Part shown: in pieces, positions 1,983 to 25,661 of the stretch
Position numbering within the stretch: the stretch's first letter is position 1
How the letters are laid out: each line of letters begins with the position of its first letter
Assembly (NCBI GenBank): GCA_049423385.1
Contig: JBMSQQ010000001.1
Location: 25,492-89,491, forward strand
Source: Silvanigrellaceae bacterium
GTDB taxonomy: Bacteria > Bdellovibrionota_B > Oligoflexia > Silvanigrellales > Silvanigrellaceae
Reading direction: 5' to 3'
DNA: 64,000 nucleotides
Program-made: the position numbers and the translations under genes
Notes under the pieces: model-generated
Database searches by the model: none
Told to the model about the DNA's origin: nothing
The model's input: only the letters and a program-made list of their open reading frames with translations

Positions 1983-3158
1983 CTATTTTTGGCACTTGAA
2001 TTCGGATCCGAACTCTAGCGCTCCGCCATCAAACACGGATTCCTCCAAAAGTCGGCCTCCGTCACGATTGGGAGAAAACGGCATGACTTCGAATAGCTTC
2101 GTCGTGATTCGTGTTTGAAAAGATTGCTCAGAGCCATTCTTTTCAAATCCTGACTCCTTGGGTATCGCAATTCCTCCGAAAGTCTTCCTGTCCGCGACTG
2201 CGGAAATGGTCAGCCGGCGGTTTAGAAATGCGGAACTCAATTCAAAGTCGCCGTTACAGGCATCAACTTTACTTTCAAAGACAGTGCCGAGATTTTGAGG
2301 CGCAAAATCGATTGAAACGAGGGGGCTTCTGTAACCAACCAGCCAAGCCTCTGGTTTTATCACTCCCACCTGCAATGGTCGTCCGCCGGCCACCGCAACA
2401 CCACGATTGCGGACTTTGTCATAGGCCTGCATCCACACATAAGCAGGCGGAAACGAGACGCCCCAGTTTTTTTCAATGTGGGCGAATCCGGTTCCCGAAA
2501 CACGTTGCAACCCATTTCCATTTCGACTGGGCAGACTTGCCTCAAATTCCACGCGAGAGCGCAAACTGTGGACAAACCAATGCAGTGGAAAAGACCTGAA
2601 AAGGCTGATGTATCCCTCGGGACCAAGGCCACTCGCATTCCACGAAGTCACTTCCAGCCAACGTGCACGAGCTGAAACACCGTTACTCAAACTGAGCTGA
2701 ACTGCATCGGCAGAAAACTCTCCTACACCTTCGGCCGTCCAGCGGAATGATGCCTTTCCCGTCGGAGCAGGATCACGATTTACAATATCGCTATGATTCA
2801 GAAATAATTTGGTGTTCTTCGGAAAGACCTCGAAGGATCGCAAAGGTTGACCCGACGAACCACCATCCAGGACAGCTGCATAGCCAGTAAGACCTTTGCT
2901 CTCGGCGTCTGTTCGAGCTTCGCCCGGTGGCAGATAAGAGCCAACGATGACTCCCAATGACTGCTGTGTGGCGCTGTCGGGCGTAATCCGGACGTACCAA
3001 CCTTCAAACCAGGGTCCGCGATCTGGAAGGCGATGAGGATCGAGCAGCGAATCAACGGAAGATTCAGGTGGTCCAAAACTCCGCTTTTGACATCCCATCG
3101 CAAAAAGAGTCAGAAGTCCCGGCCAAAATATTCTGAACAGAGAATTTCTTTTGTGCAC
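1983..3158 (-). CDS. Tocopherol-cyclase-like protein, probable lipoprotein
   Basis: PWFEGWY and HIEKNWGVSFPPAYVWMQ motifs of the tocopherol cyclase family; basic N-terminus, hydrophobic stretch and lipobox-like FAMGC. Confidence 0.7.
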   Translation of the reverse strand: MHKRNSLFRIFWPGLLTLFAMGCQKRSFGPPESSVDSLLDPHRLPDRGPWFEGWYVRITPDSATQQSLGVIVGSYLPPGEARTDAESKGLTGYAAVLDGGSSGQPLRSFEVFPKNTKLFLNHSDIVNRDPAPTGKASFRWTAEGVGEFSADAVQLSLSNGVSARARWLEVTSWNASGLGPEGYISLFRSFPLHWFVHSLRSRVEFEASLPSRNGNGLQRVSGTGFAHIEKNWGVSFPPAYVWMQAYDKVRNRGVAVAGGRPLQVGVIKPEAWLVGYRSPLVSIDFAPQNLGTVFESKVDACNGDFELSSAFLNRRLTISAVADRKTFGGIAIPKESGFEKNGSEQSFQTRITTKLFEVMPFSPNRDGGRLLEESVFDGGALEFGSEFKCQK

Positions 3159-3187
3159 CGGGCACTCCCATGAAAAGGTTGCGCAGG

Positions 3188-5314
3188 CTACCCGGCCCGC
3201 TTCGACGATTCCTGCCGCAATGCAGACTCGTTCACCTCTGGTTCATGCTCCTCGGATTCAACCACCAAACGTGGACGCATCTTTTGAGCCAATCTGTCCA
3301 CGGCATCTGCCCGTGCCCGTTCGGGTGAAATATCAGAACCACGTCGAAAGACCTGCGTCGTCTGATTCTTCTTCAACCTGCTGCGCACGCGAAGGCCTCT
3401 CACAGCATGTCCAAGATCCTGAACCACATCTTCAATACGATAAGACTGCTCGCGAACATCCTGAACATGACGATTCAGCTCTACTCGAATATTTCCAGTA
3501 TGGTTGAGAGCAGACTCAACCATGTCAACCTGGTCACAGATATTCCTGACAATCTGATCTTGCTCCCTGAGTGACTGAACAGAGAGCTCAATCGCCTCGA
3601 CAACGCTCGGCAAAGGCGTATTCATTTGATGCGAAGACTTTGTAGCCTCGGAAACCATTTGAACGGTTGTGGAAATTCTCTGCCTGAAAACCGCCGAAGC
3701 GTCGAAGATTTGCTTCCTCGATTTTGAAACTGCATCCGAGACCTCCCTCGAAAGCTTCTCGGTGACTTCGGAAAATCCACGTATTTCTTTCGCAACGTTT
3801 GCAAAGCCCTTGCCATGTTGCCCGGCACGGTTTGCTTCGATGGAGGCGTTGAAGCCAACAAGTTGAGCCTTGAACACCAGGTCATTCAATTCGGCAAGGT
3901 GGCCATGAATTTCATCCAAAGACTGCTCAATACCGCCAATCAGCTGTGCAGCCTCCTCGATACCGGAAAGTCCATCAACAACAGGACCCAGATCATTGCG
4001 AACCGAAGACGCATCAGAAATAAAATTGCGCAATGCTTTGGCGCTCTCAGACAATGCTTCTCCGCGGGTTTCCGACTGTGTGAGAATGTCGCGACCTTTT
4101 TGAAGGACATCCGAAATTGACTCAACCCCAACTGAATCGAGTGAACCAATTCGCTTGAGGGCTTCGTTCAATTCATCGCCAACCTCGATCAGCCGGATCG
4201 TCTCATCCTTCAGCTTCACCGAATACTCAAGATATTCCCTCACAAGCGAGCGGGCGGCACCGTAGCCGACAAGTCCAAAAACAACAGTAAACATGAACAA
4301 CAGTGAATAGAAAATTCTCTTTTGGGTGGTGATATCGGACATCACTTCGGCACTGGCTGCCGATACGAGAACCGACCAATTGAGACTCTCGGGAATTCTG
4401 GGGTCCTTGATTTGATGATAGCCCCACAGTCGCTCCGCACGGGTCACACGATCCACTTCCACCAATGCACCCGTTTTTCCGCTGACAGCCTCCTGTGCCG
4501 CAGCTTGGCCCAATTGGGTTGCCACATTCCAGCGTAAAATCCGGTCCTGATTTCTTTTGACTTCTCCCTTTTCTCCAATTACTTCCGAAGAAACTTCGGC
4601 TGAAAGAAGTCCATCCCTGTTCAACAACATCAATTGGGCAGTTTGTACGCCACTGTAACGCATGCTTTCAAAAATGCGCTGGAGTTCGCTTTCAACGAAT
4701 CGAATACTCACCCGTGCCGTAATCACACCAACCCGGTTGCCGTCTGGACCATTCACCGCGCGCGAGAAACCAACGCCTTGCAAGGTCGTGCCATGCAATG
4801 CGCTTGATATTGGATCAACCTGCAGATCTTCAAAGAAGGCTCCTCCGACGAGCCGGGGCTTTTCATTTTTCGGCTCCGCCTTGATCACACCCTGAAACCA
4901 TGGGGTTTCTGCGAACGAGCGGCCCTCCATTGTTTTGTTGTCCAGTGCCCGTCCGTCGAAAGTTTTGGTGTTTGAGGCCAAGAATTTTCCACTTGCATCG
5001 ACAAACATGATGGTGTCGTAGACTTGGTATCCTGCCACGAGAGAATTCAATACGGAGGTCATGGCTTCGCGCTGATTCGATTGAAAGACGGTATTGGATG
5101 CAAAAGCGTCAATATCCGCGGCCCGCTCAAAGAAGGAAGAAGAGACGTTCTGCCCCGCAAGCATGGCACGAGATGTATATTCGGATTTTTGCGCAGTGGT
5201 GCGTGCCTGAAAGTTTTGGTTTGCTTGCAGGAAAGCAAAGACCACCACGGTCGCCAATCCAGCGAGTGCCAGGAACAAAAGCTTGCTCCGCAGCGAAAGT
5301 GCACGCCAGAACAT
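3188..5314 (-). CDS. Methyl-accepting chemotaxis protein with Cache-like periplasmic sensor
   Basis: Two TM segments flanking a large periplasmic domain; signalling hairpin GFNASIEANRAGQHGKGFANVAKEI. Start chosen at the ATG after a GGGAG RBS. Confidence 0.88.
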   Translation of the reverse strand: MFWRALSLRSKLLFLALAGLATVVVFAFLQANQNFQARTTAQKSEYTSRAMLAGQNVSSSFFERAADIDAFASNTVFQSNQREAMTSVLNSLVAGYQVYDTIMFVDASGKFLASNTKTFDGRALDNKTMEGRSFAETPWFQGVIKAEPKNEKPRLVGGAFFEDLQVDPISSALHGTTLQGVGFSRAVNGPDGNRVGVITARVSIRFVESELQRIFESMRYSGVQTAQLMLLNRDGLLSAEVSSEVIGEKGEVKRNQDRILRWNVATQLGQAAAQEAVSGKTGALVEVDRVTRAERLWGYHQIKDPRIPESLNWSVLVSAASAEVMSDITTQKRIFYSLLFMFTVVFGLVGYGAARSLVREYLEYSVKLKDETIRLIEVGDELNEALKRIGSLDSVGVESISDVLQKGRDILTQSETRGEALSESAKALRNFISDASSVRNDLGPVVDGLSGIEEAAQLIGGIEQSLDEIHGHLAELNDLVFKAQLVGFNASIEANRAGQHGKGFANVAKEIRGFSEVTEKLSREVSDAVSKSRKQIFDASAVFRQRISTTVQMVSEATKSSHQMNTPLPSVVEAIELSVQSLREQDQIVRNICDQVDMVESALNHTGNIRVELNRHVQDVREQSYRIEDVVQDLGHAVRGLRVRSRLKKNQTTQVFRRGSDISPERARADAVDRLAQKMRPRLVVESEEHEPEVNESALRQESSKRAG

Positions 5315-18125: not shown

Positions 18126-19198
18126 GGCCTCTTTCGCTCGGTGAATTTCATGATGACGTCGATGAGTGCTGCGATTTTTTCGGCTGACACAATTTCAAGA
18201 TTGTCGGCGGGAGTGTGCCATTCCTGAAGATTCGTCCAGTCGATGACGTGGACAAATGGAATCCCAAGGCGCTTGAAGGGAATGTGATCATCCTCGACTG
18301 CCAAAGGTACTTTCTTCATTTGAATTCCACCACGCAGGGCGATCAATTGCTCGGCAATCAGTGACTCACTGCCCTCCGTGATAAACAGATTCTGGTTTTT
18401 ATGACCCACCATGTCGAGGTTCAAGAAAAGCTTGATTGGCTTTTTTTTCCATCCAACGCTCTGGCCACTGCGCGGCAAGCGATTGACGAATTCGCGTGAA
18501 CCGTAGAGGTTGTCGCGTATCCCGAAAAGACGATCACCATCTGTCCACTCGGGCAACAAGGACTCTTCTCCATCGAAAAAAGCCATCACCAGATCGCACT
18601 CGAACCAAACTCCACCTGGCTTTTGCCGCGACGAAAGTGCGTGTGCCGGATGGGTCCACAACCGCGCCAACTCAAGCATCAGAGCTGTGGATGAGCCACC
18701 ATCGTTGGCACCCACGAAACGAGTGCCTTCAGGAAAATATTTGCTGTCATAGTGGCCACCAATGATGAATGCACAATCATCTACGCCGGGTCGCCACGCA
18801 ACAACGTTGCGACCTGTCCGGGAAACCAGAGTTTTTTCCTTCCCAACCAACGGAGGCGTCTTGACTGTGAAGCGTTGCTCCTCGGTTTTCCAACCCCAGG
18901 AAGCGAGCAATTTCATCATCCACCTCGACAAGCGCGCCTGCTCCGGACTCCCCATCGGATGCGGTGCCTGGGTGATGACCCGCAAAGACTTTTCGATGTT
19001 GGAAATATTTGGAGCAGACGCCTGCCGGACAAATTGACCTGCGCCCGGATAACCGATGGCGTCAATTGATCCCGCAGCCAGAATTGTATGCCGCGACGTA
19101 AGATGGTCGAATAGCACACACGCCACGGAAACCATCAAAAGCGGCATCAATTGTTTGGCCCATGTCCGCTTGGCAGGGCGCAAGTTTGTGGGTATCAC
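18122..19198 (-). CDS. M28-family zinc enzyme, glutaminyl-cyclase-like, membrane-anchored or exported
   Basis: GHYDSK, GANDGGSS, FFDGEE, LYGSR, LDMVG, EDDHIPF, WHT..DN; N-terminal hydrophobic segment. Confidence 0.8.
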   Translation of the reverse strand: MIPTNLRPAKRTWAKQLMPLLMVSVACVLFDHLTSRHTILAAGSIDAIGYPGAGQFVRQASAPNISNIEKSLRVITQAPHPMGSPEQARLSRWMMKLLASWGWKTEEQRFTVKTPPLVGKEKTLVSRTGRNVVAWRPGVDDCAFIIGGHYDSKYFPEGTRFVGANDGGSSTALMLELARLWTHPAHALSSRQKPGGVWFECDLVMAFFDGEESLLPEWTDGDRLFGIRDNLYGSREFVNRLPRSGQSVGWKKKPIKLFLNLDMVGHKNQNLFITEGSESLIAEQLIALRGGIQMKKVPLAVEDDHIPFKRLGIPFVHVIDWTNLQEWHTPADNLEIVSAEKIAALIDVIMKFTERKRP

Positions 19199-19229
19199 AC
19201 GGCCACCTTTATCAGTCGGGAGCAGACAT

Positions 19230-20015
19230 ATGAGGATCCTATTGTGTAACGACGATGGCTATCAGGCAATGGGCATCCAAACATTGGCAGCCACTTTGCG
19301 CGACGCCGGACACACAGTCACCATTGTTGCGCCCCATGAAGAGCGCAGTGGACAATCACATGCCATGACATTTTTTCGTCCGGTGCTGGTCCGCAAGGTG
19401 GACACCCAGACGTACGCGGTTTTTGGCACTCCTGCCGATTGCGCTTTTTTGGCTCTGCACGACATTTTCAAAAACGAAAAATTCGACATGGTGATCTCCG
19501 GAATCAATCACGGACTCAATGTGGGTTGGGATGTGAATTACAGCGGCACAGTGGGAGCTGCCACGGAAGCCGCTTCATTGGGTTACAAAGCCATCGCCAT
19601 TTCGGTGGACCTTGAGGGCTGCACGACGCCTGATCTGATGAAGAAGGCCTTTCAGAATGCCGCCAATCTGGTTCAGTGGGTCATCGAACGCAGTGCCAAC
19701 ATTCACTGGCCAAAAATGGAAGTGCTCAACCTGAATCATCCAGGTCTGCAGGTCAAAGGATTCAAAACTGCTGCATGTGGCTCACTCAGTGTCTACGTTC
19801 CAACCGCTCATAAAATGACGACTGAGGAACTGAGTCAATACGGCACAACCGTGTACATGATAGGCGGACAAGCCCGTCGAAATTCACCGCGCAATGACGA
19901 GGACGTCAACCTGATTCAAGCAGGCTATGCCACTGCAAGCTTTCTTGAGGTCAGACAGGCCAGCACAACAAACACCGCCAGCCTCAACACTTTGGCGGAG
20001 TCCTGGAAACTGTAA
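19230..20015 (+). CDS. surE: 5'/3'-nucleotidase SurE
   Basis: ILLCNDDG, SGQSHA, GTPADC, SGINHGLN, YSGTVGAA.E. Confidence 0.95.
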   Translation: MRILLCNDDGYQAMGIQTLAATLRDAGHTVTIVAPHEERSGQSHAMTFFRPVLVRKVDTQTYAVFGTPADCAFLALHDIFKNEKFDMVISGINHGLNVGWDVNYSGTVGAATEAASLGYKAIAISVDLEGCTTPDLMKKAFQNAANLVQWVIERSANIHWPKMEVLNLNHPGLQVKGFKTAACGSLSVYVPTAHKMTTEELSQYGTTVYMIGGQARRNSPRNDEDVNLIQAGYATASFLEVRQASTTNTASLNTLAESWKL

Positions 20016-20020
20016 AGAGT

Positions 20021-21139
20021 ATGTCTTCGAACGATGGAGCATTGGAGTCGAATCAATCATGGGCGCAGCAACTGCGTCGGGGCCTCGTGACGCTCGAGCA
20101 ATTGGAAGAGCGGGGCTGGCTTGATTCTTTTGCAAACAACGACGACCTTCAGATTGCAAAATCCGCCCTGGACATACGTGTCCCTGTCGTTTTTCATGAT
20201 GAGATCAGCAAGGGCGATTTGAGTCTCATCAATCAATTTATTCCCTCTGCGCGTGAAGCGAGGATTGCTCCCGAAGAATTGGGCGACCCGATTGGTGATG
20301 AAACATTCTCACCCGTGGCGGGCCTCACTCATCGATATCCCGATCGTGTCCTCGTCAAAATCACCTACCAATGCGCCGTCTATTGCCGCTTCTGCTTTCG
20401 TCGTCACAAGGTTTCGCACAGCGAAGAAAACCTCAGTTACGATGCGCTGGATGCAGCATACAGATACGTTGAAGTGCATCCGGAAATCAAAGAAGTGATC
20501 TTCACTGGCGGTGATCCGCTTGTCCTGACGGACAAGAGATTGCAGCAGCATTTGGAACGTGTCGAGCGCATCCCGCACGTGGAATCCATTCGATTTCACA
20601 CCCGGGTTCCGGTTGTCCTGCCTGAACGAATCACGCCAGAATTGTGCGAAATGTTCAGCGGACTGAAAAAGCTTCCATGGGTGGTGATCCATATCAACAG
20701 TGCGTCTGAATTGACTGATTCTGCCCGGGCAGCCATAACGCGCCTGCGCCGCGCCGGAATACCCATGGCATCCCAATCTGTTCTGCTCAATGGGGTCAAT
20801 GATTCGACAGAGAAGCTCGAAATCCTTTTTCGCTCGTTGTTCCGGATTGGAATCAAGCCCTACTATCTGCACTACCCGGACCTTGCGAAGGGAACGGGCC
20901 ATTTTCGCATGCCTCTGAGCCATGCCCTCAAGACAATGGCGGCCCTCCAGGGGAAGCTCCCGGGCCTTGCCATCCCTCAACTGACGGTCGACATCCCCGG
21001 AGGGCACGGAAAAATCGCAGTCAGTTCGGATTCTTGTGTTCCAAAGGCAACTGGCAGCCAAAACTCCGGCGAAATCTGGAACATGAAGAGCCCCATCACC
21101 GGGGAATGGGTCAAAGTTCAATATCCCCATTGCCCCTAA
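20021..21139 (+). CDS. KamA/EpmB family radical SAM lysine 2,3-aminomutase
   Basis: GLTHRYPDRVL, CAVYCRFCFRR (CxxxCxxC), TGGDPL, QSVLL.GVND, DIPGG.GK. Confidence 0.9.
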   Translation: MSSNDGALESNQSWAQQLRRGLVTLEQLEERGWLDSFANNDDLQIAKSALDIRVPVVFHDEISKGDLSLINQFIPSAREARIAPEELGDPIGDETFSPVAGLTHRYPDRVLVKITYQCAVYCRFCFRRHKVSHSEENLSYDALDAAYRYVEVHPEIKEVIFTGGDPLVLTDKRLQQHLERVERIPHVESIRFHTRVPVVLPERITPELCEMFSGLKKLPWVVIHINSASELTDSARAAITRLRRAGIPMASQSVLLNGVNDSTEKLEILFRSLFRIGIKPYYLHYPDLAKGTGHFRMPLSHALKTMAALQGKLPGLAIPQLTVDIPGGHGKIAVSSDSCVPKATGSQNSGEIWNMKSPITGEWVKVQYPHCP

Positions 21140-21147
21140 GAAACTCC

Positions 21148-21174
21148 TAAAGTTCAAATTCAGCCTGCCGAATC
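21148..21174 (+). promoter_or_regulatory. Sigma-28-type promoter upstream of the pilin gene
   Basis: TAAA(GTT)-N15-GCCGAATC. Confidence 0.6.
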
Positions 21175-21222
21175 ATCCCATGAGGGTTTGGTACACAGAT
21201 ATTCTGTGGGGAGGCAGGACAC

Positions 21223-21786
21223 ATGAACTCACTCAACTTGAAAAGACCGGCGAAGGTGGCCCTCAGTGGCACGGCCGGGACGATGGCAGGTTTTACGCTC
21301 GTCGAACTGATGGTGGTTGTGGCCATTATCGGAATTCTCGCGGCAGTGGCTGGTCCTCGTGTTCAGGCTTTCCGCGCGCGCGGCGTTCAATCCGAAGCCA
21401 AGGCCAATCTGAACAGCATTTACCTGGCTCAATCGGCCTACCAGGACGCCAAGGACCAATTTTTCGAAGCGGGGGCAAATGGTGCCAAAGGCGCTGTTGT
21501 CAAATGCAGCGGAGTTGTAGGAGCCGACTGCGGCACTGACTTCGCCTTCAGGCAGTTGCCAGGCTCGAAGTATGATTATCAGGTGATTGGAAGCAGTGGT
21601 TCGTGGGCTGCGCTTGCCGTCAGCAAACAACAAATATTGAACGCCAAGACCGATGTCTGGAGAATCAACGCGAGCAAAACGTTGTGCTCACCGCAAGATG
21701 CCGTCACCAAAAAAGACGCTACGGCCAACAATTGCGCGAACCAGACTGCAACCGTTGACATCGTGACGGGCGACGAAGCGATGTGA
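21223..21786 (+). CDS. Type IV pilin / pseudopilin
   Basis: Class III signal G|FTLVELMVVVAIIGILAAVA; SEAKANL..I helix; four Cys; GGAGG RBS. Confidence 0.92.
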   Translation: MNSLNLKRPAKVALSGTAGTMAGFTLVELMVVVAIIGILAAVAGPRVQAFRARGVQSEAKANLNSIYLAQSAYQDAKDQFFEAGANGAKGAVVKCSGVVGADCGTDFAFRQLPGSKYDYQVIGSSGSWAALAVSKQQILNAKTDVWRINASKTLCSPQDAVTKKDATANNCANQTATVDIVTGDEAM

Positions 21787-21821
21787 CCCTCACCGAAGTT
21801 GAATTACTTTACGCTTTTCTT

Positions 21822-21880
21822 GCCCACCGCACCGGACTGTGCTACGAGCCACAGCTCCGGTGCTGGTGTTTTGGGCTTTT
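21822..21880 (+). terminator. Long imperfect hairpin after the pilin gene, probable terminator
   Basis: CACC-GCACCGGA-CTGTG...CACAG-C-TCCGGTGC-T-GGTG, followed by T-runs. Confidence 0.55.
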
Positions 21881-21954
21881 GACGCTTGAACTCTAGCAGT
21901 TTTCCTAGGAATATTGGTTTTTTATCTTTGCAAAGATTGTTTTAGGAGGTTCCT

Positions 21955-22065
21955 GTGCACGGTTCACGCCATAGAAGAAAGCATCCCAAGGGTCGTCGTA
22001 AGGTCGGTCGCAAGAAGCGTCGTCTTCTCCGCCGTCGTCGCGCTGCGAGAACTGGTGGCAAGTAA
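21955..22065 (+). CDS. 36-aa very basic small protein MHGSRHRRKHPKGRRKVGRKKRRLLRRRRAARTGGK (absent from the ORF track)
   Basis: AGGAGG at 21944-21949, GTG start, TAA stop, 13 Arg + 6 Lys and no acidic residues, all Lys as AAG and most Arg as CGT/CGC, downstream terminator. Confidence 0.8.
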   Translation: MHGSRHRRKHPKGRRKVGRKKRRLLRRRRAARTGGK

Positions 22066-22124
22066 GCCCTGAATCACCTCTGATGTTTGGCTCACGCCAG
22101 GCAAGTCGGAGGCGATTCAAAACC

Positions 22125-22160
22125 AAAAAAAGGTCCGGGAGACGTCCCGGGCCTTTTTTT
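22125..22160. terminator. Bidirectional rho-independent terminator
   Basis: A7-GGTCCGGGA-GACG-TCCCGGGCC-T7. Confidence 0.9.
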
Positions 22161-22252
22161 CGTGCCCTGCTCCGGCAAGTACTATTTTCAGCGACCTGTA
22201 CTTCTTTTTCGCCTCCCCGCCTGCTGCACAATTGGTTGGCATTCCTCCTCAG

Positions 22253-22339
22253 TTATACACAAGTTATCCACATGGCCAGTCATCCAAGAAACTCATGTGC
22301 CCGTTGCTGTAGAATTTGGCCGTGAATGTTTTATGCACA
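22253..22339 (+). promoter_or_regulatory. Cluster of three co-oriented DnaA boxes
   Basis: TTATACACA (22253-22261), TTATCCACA (22264-22272), TTATGCACA (22331-22339); all match TTWTNCACA. Confidence 0.6.
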
Positions 22340-22373
22340 AAAAAAATCCCGAAGCATGGAATGCTTCGGGATT
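22339..22373 (-). terminator. Rho-independent terminator of rplM-rpsI
   Basis: 13-bp perfect stem AATCCCGAAGCAT/ATGCTTCGGGATT followed by a U-run on the minus strand. Confidence 0.88.
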
Positions 22374-22451
22374 GTCCAATTTCGTGACCAAAGAACCGCA
22401 CAAAGACAAGGCAGCCCAATCCGGACGATGCCACCTTTTGCGGAAATTTGA

Positions 22452-22844
22452 TTAACGCTTCGAGAACTGGAAGCGAGCGCGGGCGGAACGCAAACCGTAG
22501 AGTTTACGCTCTTTGCTGCGTGGGTCACGAGTGACAAAGCCAGCAGCTTTGAGAGTCGGACGCAACTCAGCGTTGTAAGCCATGAGCGCTCGGGTCAAAC
22601 CATGACGAATCGCTCCCGCTTGACCAGACAAACCACCGCCAATCACGTTGACGTTGATGTCGATCTTGCCGTTGAGAGCAACCAACTTGAGCGCTTGCTC
22701 AACAACCATGCGCGAGGTTGGACGCTTGAAGTAGTCCTCGAGGGTGCGGGAATTGACCGTGATCTTTCCCTTGCCTTCCTTGATGTAAACGCGGGCGATT
22801 GCGGTTTTACGCTTGCCGAGACCTGTGAAGTATTTGATGGCCAT
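22452..22844 (-). CDS. rpsI: 30S ribosomal protein S9 (uS9)
   Basis: [40 protein letters not shown]. Confidence 0.98.
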
Positions 22845-22887
22845 TTTTGAAGCCTTCCTTTTCTAATCCGTTTGAAAACCGTTCGAA

Positions 22888-23328
22888 TCAAGCCTTGGTG
22901 CGTGCAGGAAGCGGTTCAGGCTTCTGAGCAGCATGGGGATGTTCGGTTCCGTTGTACACCTTCAGATTTCTGAACAATTCGCGGCCCAGAACGTTGTGGG
23001 GCAACATTCCCTTGACCGCCAATTCAATGAGGCGCTCGGGATGCTTTGCACGAATGTCGGCAGCGGTGAACGACTTGAGTCCACCAAAGTAACCGCTGTG
23101 GCGGTAGTACATCTTGGTGTTTTCCTTTGTTCCGGCCAAACGGATTTTTTCGGCGTTGATCACGATGATGTTGTCACCGGTATCGATATGGGGCGTGAAG
23201 ATGGCTTTGTGCTTTCCACGCAGAACGTATGCAATTTGCGTCGCAAGACGGCCAAGAGTCTGGCCATCGGCGTCAACGATGAACCACTTCTTCTGAACAT
23301 CGGATGGTTTGGCGCTGTATGTTTTCAT
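22888..23328 (-). CDS. rplM: 50S ribosomal protein L13 (uL13)
   Basis: [39 protein letters not shown]. Confidence 0.98.
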
Positions 23329-23659
23329 TTCCTGAACTCCACGTGATTTTCAACATCGAAAACCACACTGTTACTGATCCGACTGCACGTATTTTTCGAT
23401 CATCCGGAAACCTGAAACTGCAGGGCGTTATCTCAACGCAAAGTTCCTGATTCGGACACATCGGCCATCACGAGCCAACGGATGTCATCTTCATGCGAGT
23501 CCAAAACGTTCGCCGTCGGGACAAACCGTGGATAGTTTGTTTTTCCGCCGACTTAACGCGTGCCAGCCATCTGACACACACGCAAAAGACAACCACTGCG
23601 ACCCCAGCCAAGCCGGGCATAATGAACGCAGGACGCCCCTTATAGTGAGAGGACGAGCT

Positions 23660-24868
23660 GTGGTCAACCTTGATTTGCTATCTAAAAACGCAGCGGCTTT
23701 GCTCCCTGTCAGTGGAGTGGTCGACACCGTTGTGATCCGCCTCGGTCGTTTGCTGGCAAACCGCCTGCTGGAATGCGGCAACCCCTCGGCATCAGAGCTG
23801 ATTGTCTATGAATCCGAGGACACACCTTCGCACGATGAGTGCGACTTGTACCTGAGTCATTTTGATTGTCATTTGGTCAACAATCTTAGAAATTTGGCAG
23901 CCCTGACAGCACTCCAGTCCAAATACGAAGTCATGGAAGACAGACTGCTGGGTCTGCTCGCCCAGCGGGCCCGCCGCGAACTCAACACCATAAATGAAGA
24001 CCCACCACTGGCCACCCGTCTGGCTCAGGAAATAGAGGCCCTCCTGGCGATCTCTCCCGCCCGTGGAGCAAACGCCCGTGAAGCTGCCGAATTTGGCGGG
24101 GGGTTCCTGGCGAGTTTGACCCAACGATGTCAGGAACTCATGCAAAAACCCAATCTCGATTGGACGGATCTCATCAAAGCGGACAAACCGCTGCCTGCGG
24201 AAGCGCTGTTGCGTTGGGCAAGTCGTCTTGCGCATGCCGTTGCAACGGCGGGAAGCATCATGCACAGGCTGGAAAATTTCTTTGGCAAAGATCCCATCGA
24301 CGACGCGGGACGCAAGGGAGTCCACAATTACAGACAAATCATGAAACAAAAACACCGTCCGCTGCACCGCGCCGTGACGCAGGGATTATCCTCTCATCGA
24401 CCACAAACCCGTCGATGGGAAGACGAATCGGCGCAACTCATGACCGAGCGAAACTTTCATGCCTTCGCGGTTTGTGTCGACCAGGTTGTTGCACAGCTGT
24501 CAGCCCGGCTCGAGGTGTGGAGCAAAAATGAAATCCAAAGAAGCTCAAATCCAAAACCCAGGCTGATTGAAGTTGAAAACTTCTTTTACGTCGACAGCAT
24601 GAGACGCACTCTCCATCAGCTCGGGGAAGGCCTTGAAGATGCCACCATGTGCGCTGAAAAACTGCTCGAGTATTGTCATGAAAGCAATGTTGCGGCGGCT
24701 GAGTTGATTGATGACGAAATTTGGTCGCTGTATCCGCGAATCAATCGCGAGACCTTGAAGCAAGCCCGCCTGAAGGTGCGCCACTCCGATGATCATTTTC
24801 CTTTGAGTGTTGCTCACAGGGAGTGGATCACTCGGCTGTCTGAACAGGCTCTTGTGGCGAAGGCTTGA
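23660..24868 (+). CDS. Helical protein distantly resembling argininosuccinate lyase (fumarase/aspartase superfamily)
   Basis: Segments TERNFHAF..QLSARLEVWS and KLLEYCHESNV..AELIDDEIWSLYP resemble ArgH SDRDF..HLSRL.E...WS and its C-terminal domain. GTG start after GAGAGGA. Confidence 0.5.
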   Translation: MVNLDLLSKNAAALLPVSGVVDTVVIRLGRLLANRLLECGNPSASELIVYESEDTPSHDECDLYLSHFDCHLVNNLRNLAALTALQSKYEVMEDRLLGLLAQRARRELNTINEDPPLATRLAQEIEALLAISPARGANAREAAEFGGGFLASLTQRCQELMQKPNLDWTDLIKADKPLPAEALLRWASRLAHAVATAGSIMHRLENFFGKDPIDDAGRKGVHNYRQIMKQKHRPLHRAVTQGLSSHRPQTRRWEDESAQLMTERNFHAFAVCVDQVVAQLSARLEVWSKNEIQRSSNPKPRLIEVENFFYVDSMRRTLHQLGEGLEDATMCAEKLLEYCHESNVAAAELIDDEIWSLYPRINRETLKQARLKVRHSDDHFPLSVAHREWITRLSEQALVAKA

Positions 24869-25661
24869 CAGCTGGATTCGCCGGCGAACCCTCGTCTCCA
24901 AATTCAGGTGCTGCTTCATAGAACTTTTCACCGATCGTGATGATCACCGGAGAAAAAAGTTCTTCTTGCCGAAGCAAAACATGATGCGCCTTGGCGAGTT
25001 CAAGAGTTGCCATGATGGTGATGATCAAGTCGTAGCGGGTTTCGCAGTCCTCAAACAATTCGCGCAGCGTGACTTGCTGCGTCATTTCAAGACGCCTCTT
25101 GATGACAACCATTCGACTTTGAATCGTGACTTTTTGGGCGCGCACTTTCACCGTTGGAGCGGCCTGGCTTTGCGCAAACCTCAAAAGCATTCTCTCGAAG
25201 GCAATCACCAAAGAGAACGCGTCTCCCTTGATGGGTGCGTGCAGCTTTTCATGTTCATCCGCACGGCGTGTGGGTTCACCGGTTGGAAAGACATCCCGGC
25301 CAAGAATGCTCAGCCTGTCGAGCCGTTCACATGCTTCCCGGATGGCCTCGAACTCCAACAAGCTCTCGACCAGCGGACGACGAGGGTCATCTTCAGGAAT
25401 TTCCTCAAGTGACTGGGCGTCGACCAGGCGATTTTGCAAGGCAGGCACCAGCAGATTGGCCTTGATTTCGAGCAGTTGCGCGGCCATTGCCAAAAATTCG
25501 CCGGCCATATGGAAGTCGAGCATGGGGGCATTGCGCAGAAACGACACATACTGTTCTGCGACGATGGAAATTGGAATATTGAAAATATTGATTTCCTGCT
25601 GCTTGATGAGATGCAACAGCAGATCGAGGGGTCCATCAAAATTTTCAAGACGCAGATACAT
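24828..25661 (-). CDS. scpA: Segregation and condensation protein A (kleisin)
   Basis: FDGPLDLLLHLI, EFLAMAAQLLEIKA..L, EDDPR..LV, LELAK....L.QEELFSP. Confidence 0.93.
   Translation of the reverse strand: MYLRLENFDGPLDLLLHLIKQQEINIFNIPISIVAEQYVSFLRNAPMLDFHMAGEFLAMAAQLLEIKANLLVPALQNRLVDAQSLEEIPEDDPRRPLVESLLEFEAIREACERLDRLSILGRDVFPTGEPTRRADEHEKLHAPIKGDAFSLVIAFERMLLRFAQSQAAPTVKVRAQKVTIQSRMVVIKRRLEMTQQVTLRELFEDCETRYDLIITIMATLELAKAHHVLLRQEELFSPVIITIGEKFYEAAPEFGDEGSPANPAVKPSPQEPVQTAE

Follow-up and report, generated by a model that had tools for sequence, protein, structure and literature searches.

The ribosomal protein bTHX of Thermus and of the chloroplast is lineage-restricted and was found by structure work, not by annotation. 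The proteins bS22, bL37 and bL38 were found lineage by lineage as unexplained density in cryo-electron microscopy, as described in the three sources to which all citations below refer (PMC12123416, bioRxiv 10.1101/2023.03.31.535098, PMC10618245). The present analysis concerns a gene whose product may be of this kind. It is situated at 21955-22065 on the forward strand of a stretch of 64,000 nucleotides (hereafter the window) from contig JBMSQQ010000001.1 of a Silvanigrellaceae bacterium (assembly GCA_049423385.1), a family placed by the NCBI taxonomy within Oligoflexia, Bdellovibrionota. The small gene encodes an extremely basic protein of 36 amino acids (aa). Comparative evidence supports it well as a new small-protein family, for which a ribosomal role is probable.

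Among the described tiny ribosomal proteins, bS22 is the closest in kind. This small-subunit protein occupies a pocket formed by helices h2, h27, h44 and h45 of 16S ribosomal RNA (rRNA), with contacts to H68 and H70 of 23S rRNA. The actinobacterial type of bS22 corresponds to PF08213 (COX24_C/DUF1713), and the Borrelia and Bacteroidota types are of about 30 aa. Borrelia bS22 (bb0822) has 30 aa by the coordinates given for it and 61% lysine and arginine; it was unannotated, starts with GUG and is near-invariant in its clade. Its binding pocket in 16S rRNA has a structure shared across bacteria, and the authors anticipate further proteins of this sort in other bacteria; by mass spectrometry they identified all ribosomal proteins of Borrelia but bS22 (PMC10618245). 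The Bacteroidota bS22 is unlike the mycobacterial protein in sequence and takes the same ribosomal place (PMC12123416). The length is 30 aa in P. gingivalis and 33 aa in M. smegmatis (MSMEG_0945) (PMC12123416, bioRxiv 10.1101/2023.03.31.535098). Mycobacterial bS22 is non-essential, adjoins the aminoglycoside site on h44 and modulates kanamycin susceptibility in M. smegmatis (bioRxiv 10.1101/2023.03.31.535098). The bS22 proteins of M. smegmatis, F. johnsoniae, P. gingivalis and Borrelia are present in the PDB (PMC12123416, PMC10618245). Structural analogues of bS22 are eL41 and the C-terminus of mS38/Cox24 (PMC12123416, bioRxiv 10.1101/2023.03.31.535098, PMC10618245), of which eL41 is a single unbent helix of 24 aa (PMC10618245). 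The actinobacterial large-subunit protein bL37, also of 24 aa, was found by structure work (bioRxiv 10.1101/2023.03.31.535098).

The small gene opens with GTG at 21955 and closes with TAA at 22063-22065. It is preceded by the Shine-Dalgarno (SD) motif AGGAGG at 21944-21949 on the same strand, with a spacer of 5 nucleotides (nt), ttcct. An earlier note on this DNA had claimed this motif, the spacer, the GTG start and a 36-aa open reading frame (ORF), and reading of the sequence together with the ORF listing confirmed all of them. Upstream of the GTG the reading frame stays open for 3 codons only, so the start codon is fixed at 21955 and no alternative start is available. The product, MHGSRHRRKHPKGRRKVGRKKRRLLRRRRAARTGGK, weighs 4398 Da, and its net charge is about +19. 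It contains 13 Arg and 6 Lys (19 of 36 residues, 53%) and 3 His, with no Asp, Glu or Cys, and the count agrees with the 19 of 36 basic residues and the lack of acidic ones reported in the note. AlphaFold2, run on an alignment of 24 family members (A1), predicted an extended conformation for residues 1-18 and a helix for residues 19-33, with a mean predicted local distance difference test score of 80. A Foldseek search of this model against the PDB gave no match at E <= 10, as expected for one short helix.

The small protein resembles bS22 in being 33-36 aa long across its homologues (30-33 aa in bS22), in its extreme basicity, in its predicted C-terminal helix and in having been missed or called 'hypothetical' in annotation. 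With Borrelia bb0822 it also shares the GUG start and near-invariance within its clade. Unlike bS22, it matches neither PF08213 nor a solved chain, its lysine and arginine content is lower than that of the Borrelia protein, and its N-terminal half carries invariant His and Gly and a conserved Pro and is predicted to be extended rather than helical. It is also like eL41 and the mS38/Cox24 C-terminus, each a tiny helix of Arg and Lys that is buried in the rRNA of the subunit interface; these, however, are eukaryotic or mitochondrial, and the eL41 profile PF05162 does not match it. With bL37 and bTHX it shares restriction to a lineage, high basicity and very short length, but it is 50% longer than bL37 and gives no match to the Thx profile of bTHX. 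In size, charge and conservation it is similar to bL34 and bL36, but having no Cys it lacks the Cys-rich pattern seen in the bL36 of its relatives.

The distribution of the gene was analyzed by six-frame searches. Of 41 related genomes, 38 were matched by the single protein, the best E-values ranging from 7.6e-15 to 3.4e-8. The profile built from the 24 sequences of A1 was then compared with 131 genomes of the window's GTDB phylum sample, all of which are listed as the same class or closer, the other classes of NCBI Bdellovibrionota lying outside the sample. Exactly one match was observed in 125 of these genomes, in 79 of the 83 good-quality genomes and in 53 of the 55 genera. Judged from these genome sequences, the small gene occurs in about 95% of genomes and is a nearly universal, single-copy core gene of Oligoflexia (Silvanigrellales, Oligoflexales and relatives). 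Named records which bear it include bins and isolates of Silvanigrellaceae, Silvanigrella, Fluviispira, Silvanigrellales, Oligoflexales, Oligoflexus and Pseudobacteriovorax, along with loosely labelled metagenome-assembled genomes. Three bins labelled 'uncultured Polynucleobacter sp.' or 'Bdellovibrio sp. ZAP7' (L053, L056, L057) bear an Oligoflexales-type peptide 74-77% identical to the query, and their labels appear at odds with their gene content.

For analysis of selection, 74 loci were reduced to 60 distinct coding sequences, which encode 31 distinct peptides and share 33 gap-free codons. Variable columns numbered 23, 10 and 32 of the 33 at the first, second and third codon position, with entropies of 0.55, 0.22 and 1.37 bits. 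The pooled ratio of non-synonymous to synonymous differences (pN/pS) was 0.22 at a pS of 0.72, and the invariant Arg columns alternate between CGN and AGR codons. The codon-position pattern and the pN/pS together indicate that it is the protein read in this frame which is selected, rather than an RNA or the opposite strand. A start codon is kept at all 61 distinct loci (GTG in 46, ATG in 8, TTG in 7), and an SD-like motif (GGAG, GAGG or AGGA) lies 4-18 nt from it in 58 of them. By its pattern of substitution, the ORF at 21955-22065 is a real protein-coding gene under purifying selection. The earlier note had named the lack of a conserved homologous ORF in relatives as a ground for rejecting its proposal, and such an ORF is clearly present.

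The protein sequence is constrained position by position. In A1, 21 of the 36 columns are invariant over 24 sequences from several families, the number being smaller over all 31 distinct peptides. The invariant residues include G3, S4, R5, H6, H10, G13 and G18, and P11 is kept in at least 90% of sequences. Position 30 holds ten different residues across the family, as would be expected for one exposed spot on a bound helix. In five genomes of three families, identity of the small protein was 79-97% over all pairs, 79-82% between orders and 94-97% within a family. For the same genomes the values over all pairs and between orders were 78-100% and 78-89% for bL36, 59-98% and 59-69% for bL34, and 58-100% and 58-60% for the core of bS21. 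Between the window and genomes of other orders the small protein is 72-82% identical and uS9 51-66%. By these comparisons its conservation across orders equals that of bL36 and exceeds that of bL34, bS21 and uS9.

This conservation bears on whether the protein binds nucleic acid outside the ribosome, as a protamine-like nucleoid compaction peptide, an RNA chaperone or a binder of a polyanion such as polyphosphate which acts by charge. The charge of about +19 on 36 residues with no acidic residue would suit such a binder, as would a predicted transcription unit of its own, the lack of conserved linkage to translation genes outside one family and the lack of a ribosomal family match. Binders acting mainly by charge, such as protamines, evolve fast. 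The small protein, on the other hand, evolves as slowly as bL36, and its 21 invariant columns include the non-basic G3, S4, H6, H10, G13 and G18, with P11 nearly so. A binder of this sort is considered the main rival to a ribosomal protein, though an unlikely one.

Codon usage was compared with 9 ribosomal-protein genes (S10, L23, L2, S3, L16, L29, S17, uS9 and uL13; 1286 codons) and with a background of 1777 ORFs of the same assembly, each 300 aa or longer. The mean log-odds of ribosomal-protein against background usage was +0.293 per codon for the small ORF. When the same residues were drawn from background usage the value was -0.27 +/- 0.16 and none of 5000 samples attained +0.293, while draws from ribosomal-protein usage gave +0.22 +/- 0.12. 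Lys is encoded by AAG in 6 of 6 cases, Arg by CGT or CGC in 10 of 13 and Gly by GGT in 4 of 5. The codon usage of the small ORF thus fits ribosomal-protein genes and not the genome background, and the claim that AAG, CGT/CGC and GGT mark it as a gene of the highly expressed type is upheld by the log-odds test. Such usage fits any abundant protein and does not discriminate between a ribosomal protein and a binder outside the ribosome. Three AGA codons stand at positions 7, 8 and 32, and in the family as a whole positions 8 and 32 are most often AGA. Codon 8 is AGA in 42 of the 60 distinct coding sequences, and AGA is rare in the ribosomal-protein genes of this genome. Codon 2 is CAC in 55 of the 60 and CAT in 1, and for the His codons 6 and 10 CAT prevails (43 and 41 of 60). 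Near the start, codon choice thus varies with position, possibly in the service of initiation or of low structure of the messenger RNA.

A composition screen was made of the whole 3.47-Mb assembly. ORFs of 22-60 aa with at least 40% lysine and arginine, at most one acidic residue and an SD-like motif numbered 3, of which the small ORF is the most basic; when the SD requirement was dropped, it ranked top of 13 basic ORFs. It is the only convincing tiny ultra-basic gene which this screen detects in the assembly. Should the ribosome of this organism have a bS22-like protein, the small gene would be the sole candidate for it.

On these grounds we take as the best explanation, at about an even chance of being right, that the small protein is a ribosomal protein peculiar to its lineage and embedded in rRNA, of the kind represented by bS22, eL41, bL37, bTHX and the C-terminus of mS38. 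This is favored by the single copy in about 95% of a class-level clade, the bL36-like conservation, the strong SD motif, the ribosomal-type codons and the position-specific cationic sequence. The features taken here as a working guide to ribosomal proteins in general, which define no family (near-universal single copy, slow evolution and codon usage of highly expressed genes), were all found, and so were those typical of bS22 (about 30-33 aa, very basic, helical), with 33-36 aa, 53% lysine and arginine and the predicted helix 19-33. In such a protein the invariant N-terminal half with its His, Gly and Pro residues would thread into a fixed rRNA pocket, and the Arg/Lys helix 19-33 would lie along the rRNA backbone and neutralise phosphate charge, leaving exposed one face which includes the variable position 30. 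The h44/h45 pocket used by bS22 elsewhere would be the obvious candidate binding site. Occupation of this pocket, whether by unseen homology or by convergence, makes up roughly half of the probability given to a ribosomal protein.

Several observations weigh against a ribosomal role. At E <= 10 no ribosomal family and no solved ribosomal chain gave a sequence match, and this includes the solved bS22 chains of the Borrelia and Bacteroidota type (PDB 8FMW, 7JIL and a P. gingivalis entry). The likeness to known tiny ribosomal proteins found by language-model features (below) may be what composition alone would give for any Arg/Lys-rich peptide. Support from a conserved gene neighbourhood was found only in part of one family. 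The start codon is other than ATG in 53 of 61 loci, which is unusual for maximal output, though Borrelia bS22 uses GUG as well. Both genomes of the family labelled f4 (94% and 96% complete) have no credible copy even at E <= 10, which suggests that the protein is dispensable or replaced in that family. Mycobacterial bS22 being non-essential, the apparent loss in f4 would fit a ribosomal protein as well.

Profile searches placed the protein in no described family. hmmscan of MHGSRHRRKHPKGRRKVGRKKRRLLRRRRAARTGGK and the 24 members against Pfam-A and NCBIfam gave no family at E <= 10, with the reservation that the HMMER filters may hide weak similarity of low complexity. Six-frame searches at E <= 10 with PF08213 (COX24_C; 6 genomes), Thx (PF17070; 5 genomes) and Ribosomal_L41 (PF05162; 5 genomes) gave no match at the small gene, and those with PF08213 and Thx gave none over the cut-off, which for PF08213 is 23 bits. 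As a control, PF08213 exceeded its cut-off in 1 of 14 genomes; the control for PF05162 is a weak one, its 14 genomes including no eukaryote and giving none over the cut-off. The earlier note had not recognised the peptide as bTHX, bS22 or eL41, and these comparisons are in line with that. The Pfam copy searched did not include the bL37 model PF26427; NCBIfam, which presumably includes one, gave no family for the 24 members. Against 177,635 distinct PDB sequences at E <= 10, profile A1 had no match and the single sequence had one, which overlaps the His-tag of an unrelated Get2 fragment. No structure of an Oligoflexia ribosome was found in the literature searched. So far as these profiles can detect, the small protein stands outside the described families.

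That it takes the place of one of the standard small ribosomal proteins was considered and rejected. At the small gene there was no match to L34 (PF00468) at E <= 10 or to L36 (PF00444) at E <= 1 in 5 genomes. A genuine rpmH (bL34) was found elsewhere in 4 of the 5 (67-81 bits), and genuine rpmJ (bL36) and bS21 elsewhere in all 5, so the small protein would be an addition to the set and not a replacement. The window's own draft assembly (G000, 90.6% complete) has no rpmH over the cut-off, and four complete or near-complete relatives have one; its absence from the draft is probably an assembly gap.

The language-model features of the Atlas gave as closest clusters nameless small proteins, with scores of 0.95-0.94. 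The nearest named cluster bears COX24_C on 26% of its members (score 0.87, 139 of 256 features), Ribosomal_L41 was third among the named ones (0.84) and a cluster of the bL37 helical region sixth (0.84). Scores under 0.9 are to be read as leads only, and 170 shared features are typical of matches within a family.

One special case of a ribosomal protein is a strongly diverged true homologue of bS22, representing a third sequence type in the same h44/h45 pocket, so that the small protein would be an ordinary member of a known ribosomal protein. It would agree with the size (33-36 against 30-33 aa), the basicity, the GUG start and the missing annotation, as in Borrelia bS22, with the COX24_C-bearing cluster being the nearest named one and with the assembly holding no other bS22 candidate. 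The known bS22 types likewise differ in sequence and share one ribosomal place (PMC12123416). Against such descent stand the silence of PF08213 at the gene in 6 genomes and in the hmmscan of 24 members, the failure of both profile and single sequence to match a solved ribosomal chain, and an Atlas score below 0.9 with fewer shared features than families typically show. We hold true homology with bS22 to be possible but doubtful. A ribosomal protein family which arose within Oligoflexia, having no common descent with bS22, bL37 or bTHX and occupying either a novel rRNA site or, convergently, the bS22 pocket, is a tentative alternative to which we give a rather low probability. In such a family H2, H6 and H10, the last two invariant, could give a contact sensitive to pH or metal which no known tiny ribosomal protein has. 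As for the earlier proposal of a novel ribosomal or protamine-like protein, a real and conserved coding gene outside the described families stands, and of the two roles the ribosomal one appears probable on comparative grounds.

The flanking signals were analyzed by folding and pattern scans. Upstream of the small gene a stable hairpin at 21822-21876 on the forward strand is followed by the T-rich run TTTTGGGCTTTT. It folds at -32.6 kcal/mol (z -4.6, none of 200 shuffles folding as well) and is kept across the 12 loci of the window's genus. Most likely it serves as terminator to the PilA-like pilin gene before it (21223-21786) and would thereby separate that gene from the small one. Downstream, an intrinsic terminator at 22125-22160 on the forward strand consists of an A-run, a GC-rich stem (core about 22132-22153), a GACG loop and a T-run, at -26.6 kcal/mol and z -3.9. 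In the pattern scan this hairpin appears on the minus strand only. It would end the small-gene transcript and could also stop read-through from the side of the convergent rpsI, since the A-run and T-run flank the stem symmetrically and make it possibly bidirectional. Of the 61 distinct loci, 33 have a terminator-like hairpin within 160 nt past the stop, and these belong mainly to the window's own family. The upstream hairpin and strong terminator described in the earlier note were thus recovered, and within the window's genus these two predicted elements support its view of a self-contained transcription unit.

The leader sequence, structured RNA and secreted peptide were considered as alternatives to a functional intracellular protein. 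A leader peptide or upstream ORF would be suggested by the Oligoflexales loci, where the next gene on that strand encodes a protein of about 250 aa and a terminator between the two was usually not detected, and by sub-threshold Rfam hits to Thr and Leu leaders over the terminator. In the window's family the small gene would have nothing to lead, because a terminator closes it and the next gene, rpsI, is convergent. The amino-acid sequence is under selection over its whole length with third positions free, the coding RNA is not unusually structured (fold z +1.3), and the Rfam hits reach 20-25 bits where the gathering scores are 50-55. Secretion as a cationic antimicrobial or toxin peptide is opposed by MHGSRHRRKHPKGRRKVGRKKRRLLRRRRAARTGGK itself, in which neither a signal peptide nor a hydrophobic segment was found. 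Antimicrobial peptides and toxins are, further, not usually single-copy and near-invariant across a class. Explanations of this group are very improbable.

Between the hairpin and the SD motif, the upstream alignment of 12 genus loci revealed an invariant block, GCTTTTGACGC, within which TTGACG at 21879-21884 on the forward strand is a possible -35 element. No convincing -10 element lies 16-19 nt from it, and a sigma-70 pattern scan of 21500-22900 gave no promoter-like site. A perfect 10-bp palindrome, TTCCTAGGAA, lies at 21902-21911, about 45-55 nt upstream of the start codon, and may be an operator or promoter element. Of the 12 genus loci, 11 have it exactly and the twelfth has one mismatch; it occurs as a single copy in the 3.47-Mb assembly and was not found upstream of the small gene in the other genera compared. 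The hairpin, the GCTTTTGACGC block and the palindrome together form the genus-conserved upstream region. These features suggest that the palindrome is a regulatory site, perhaps an operator. The hexamer CCTAGG has 27 copies in the assembly against about 848 expected from length alone, about 30-fold fewer, which may reflect a restriction system or general avoidance of CTAG.

The palindrome is also relevant to the idea that the protein is a sub-stoichiometric factor associated with the ribosome or another ribonucleoprotein, such as an assembly chaperone, a hibernation or stress factor, or a partner of another stable RNA. A unique element conserved in the genus could mean regulated and not constitutive expression. 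The non-ATG start in most loci and the two f4 genomes without a detectable copy point the same way, and the high conservation and the indications of RNA binding fit such a factor equally. Codon usage as strong as that of ribosomal-protein genes speaks against it. No other RNA partner is indicated, no Rfam family reaching its gathering score in 21000-23600, where the Thr/Leu-leader hits lie over the terminator hairpin. An associated factor of this sort seems improbable.

Two metatranscriptome runs, which contain 0.21 and 0.13 of the sampled words, were compared with 19000-25000. RNA contigs from them lie over the pilin gene, rpsI, rplM and stretches further to the right, and none over 21955-22065. 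As these data are assembled contigs and not reads, they count neither way on expression of the small gene. The contigs over the pilin gene end at 21821 and 21822 in the two runs, that is, at the 5' foot of the hairpin, a weak hint of termination there. One contig in each run joins 22476 to 23153, omitting 676 bases of rpsI-rplM, the shorter side being 26 letters; joints of this sort often stem from other organisms or repeats.

The gene order in the window is the pilin gene, the small gene, and the convergent rpsI (22452-22844) and rplM (22888-23328). The earlier note had called this convergence suggestive only. Of 37 loci from whole genomes of relatives, 15 show the adjacency itself, which was observed in all 12 of the genus and in three other genera of the family, but in none of 14 loci of other orders or families, the loci spanning about 1.5 kb on each side. 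In one Silvanigrellales bin rplM-rpsI lies 1.8 kb upstream on the same strand. The convergence is thus real in the window and its relatives and not conserved beyond them, and it carries little weight because the arrangement is local to part of one family.

Other neighbours vary between lineages. In the window's genus they are the pilin gene, a radical S-adenosylmethionine (SAM) gene of the KamA family and the convergent rpsI-rplM pair. Loci of the Silvanigrella/Fluviispira type have a large protein with weak similarity to histidine-kinase ATPases, and a radical SAM or CxxCxxCC-domain gene. In Oligoflexales, read at L045, L049, L054, L055, L066 and L068 (about 2250-4200 in each), the small gene stands between a divergent gene for a membrane protein of about 190-215 aa with a HAMP-like C-terminal part and a co-directional gene for a protein of about 240-265 aa without known family. 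The latter is 30-55% identical between most loci and 87% between L055 and L066; in most of these loci no terminator was detected between it and the small gene. Beyond it lies a LonB/LonC-like AAA protease in L045, L049, L054 and L068 and a major facilitator superfamily transporter in L055 and L066. Synteny was rejected as a clue to function, since the neighbours differ between lineages and none points to one.

Among the genes around the locus, the PilA-like type IV pilin at 21223-21786 matches NCBIfam PilA_Myxo (1.2e-20) and carries an N_methyl motif, and RNA contigs lie over it in both metatranscriptome runs. The KamA-family radical SAM protein at 20021-21139 adjoins the pilin gene in the genus. 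In NCBIfam it scores 354 bits with AblA_like_2 (lysine-2,3-aminomutase-like), under the 396-bit cut-off, 287 bits with KamA, over the cut-off, and 267 bits with EpmB, the beta-lysylation enzyme of elongation factor P, under the cut-off. For a 446-aa ORF at 23528-24868, next to rplM, neither Pfam nor NCBIfam gave a match at the thresholds applied; by tblastn the ORF recurs with 44-66% identity in the same place in six related loci, among them L016, L040, L041, L043 and L048 (44% in the last).

Six of the 131 genomes gave no match, and five of these, all but G097, were searched again at E <= 10. Besides the two of family f4, G049 and G091 showed no credible match. In G023 there was no match, and the flanking gene and flanking DNA were not found either, so the region is missing from the assembly or deleted. 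The best open frame in the re-searched genomes sits inside a 108-aa ORF of another frame.

The databases know the small gene only from occasional calls without a name. Of 1.84 billion representative proteins, phmmer matched 6 at E <= 0.001, all of the same family and several of them falsely extended at the N-terminus. A word-indexed search of 5.8 billion clusters, made with an alignment (A2) whose first row is a 54-aa database protein, gave 20 clusters, 8 named 'hypothetical protein' and 12 without a name. The exact MHGSRHRRKHPKGRRKVGRKKRRLLRRRRAARTGGK protein is in a nameless cluster of 6 members, one of which is also in NCBI. In these two collections and in public genome records nothing of the family was found outside Oligoflexia, and the literature search found no publication of its core motif.

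A candidate tiny ribosomal protein has thus been picked out from sequence alone, with comparative evidence strong enough to justify experiment. If the ribosomal role is true, the small protein would be a clade-wide extra component of the ribosome in Oligoflexia, a poorly studied group. A bS22 analogue here could matter for decoding and drug binding, since bS22 adjoins the aminoglycoside site on h44 and affects kanamycin susceptibility. If instead a new family was born in Oligoflexia, a new ribosomal protein name would be due to it, and its gene would define the clade as a marker. Independently of its function, the small gene is a core gene which gene callers mostly miss, wrongly extend at the N-terminus or leave as 'hypothetical', and it therefore provides a concrete case for better annotation of small ORFs and a compact marker for the clade.

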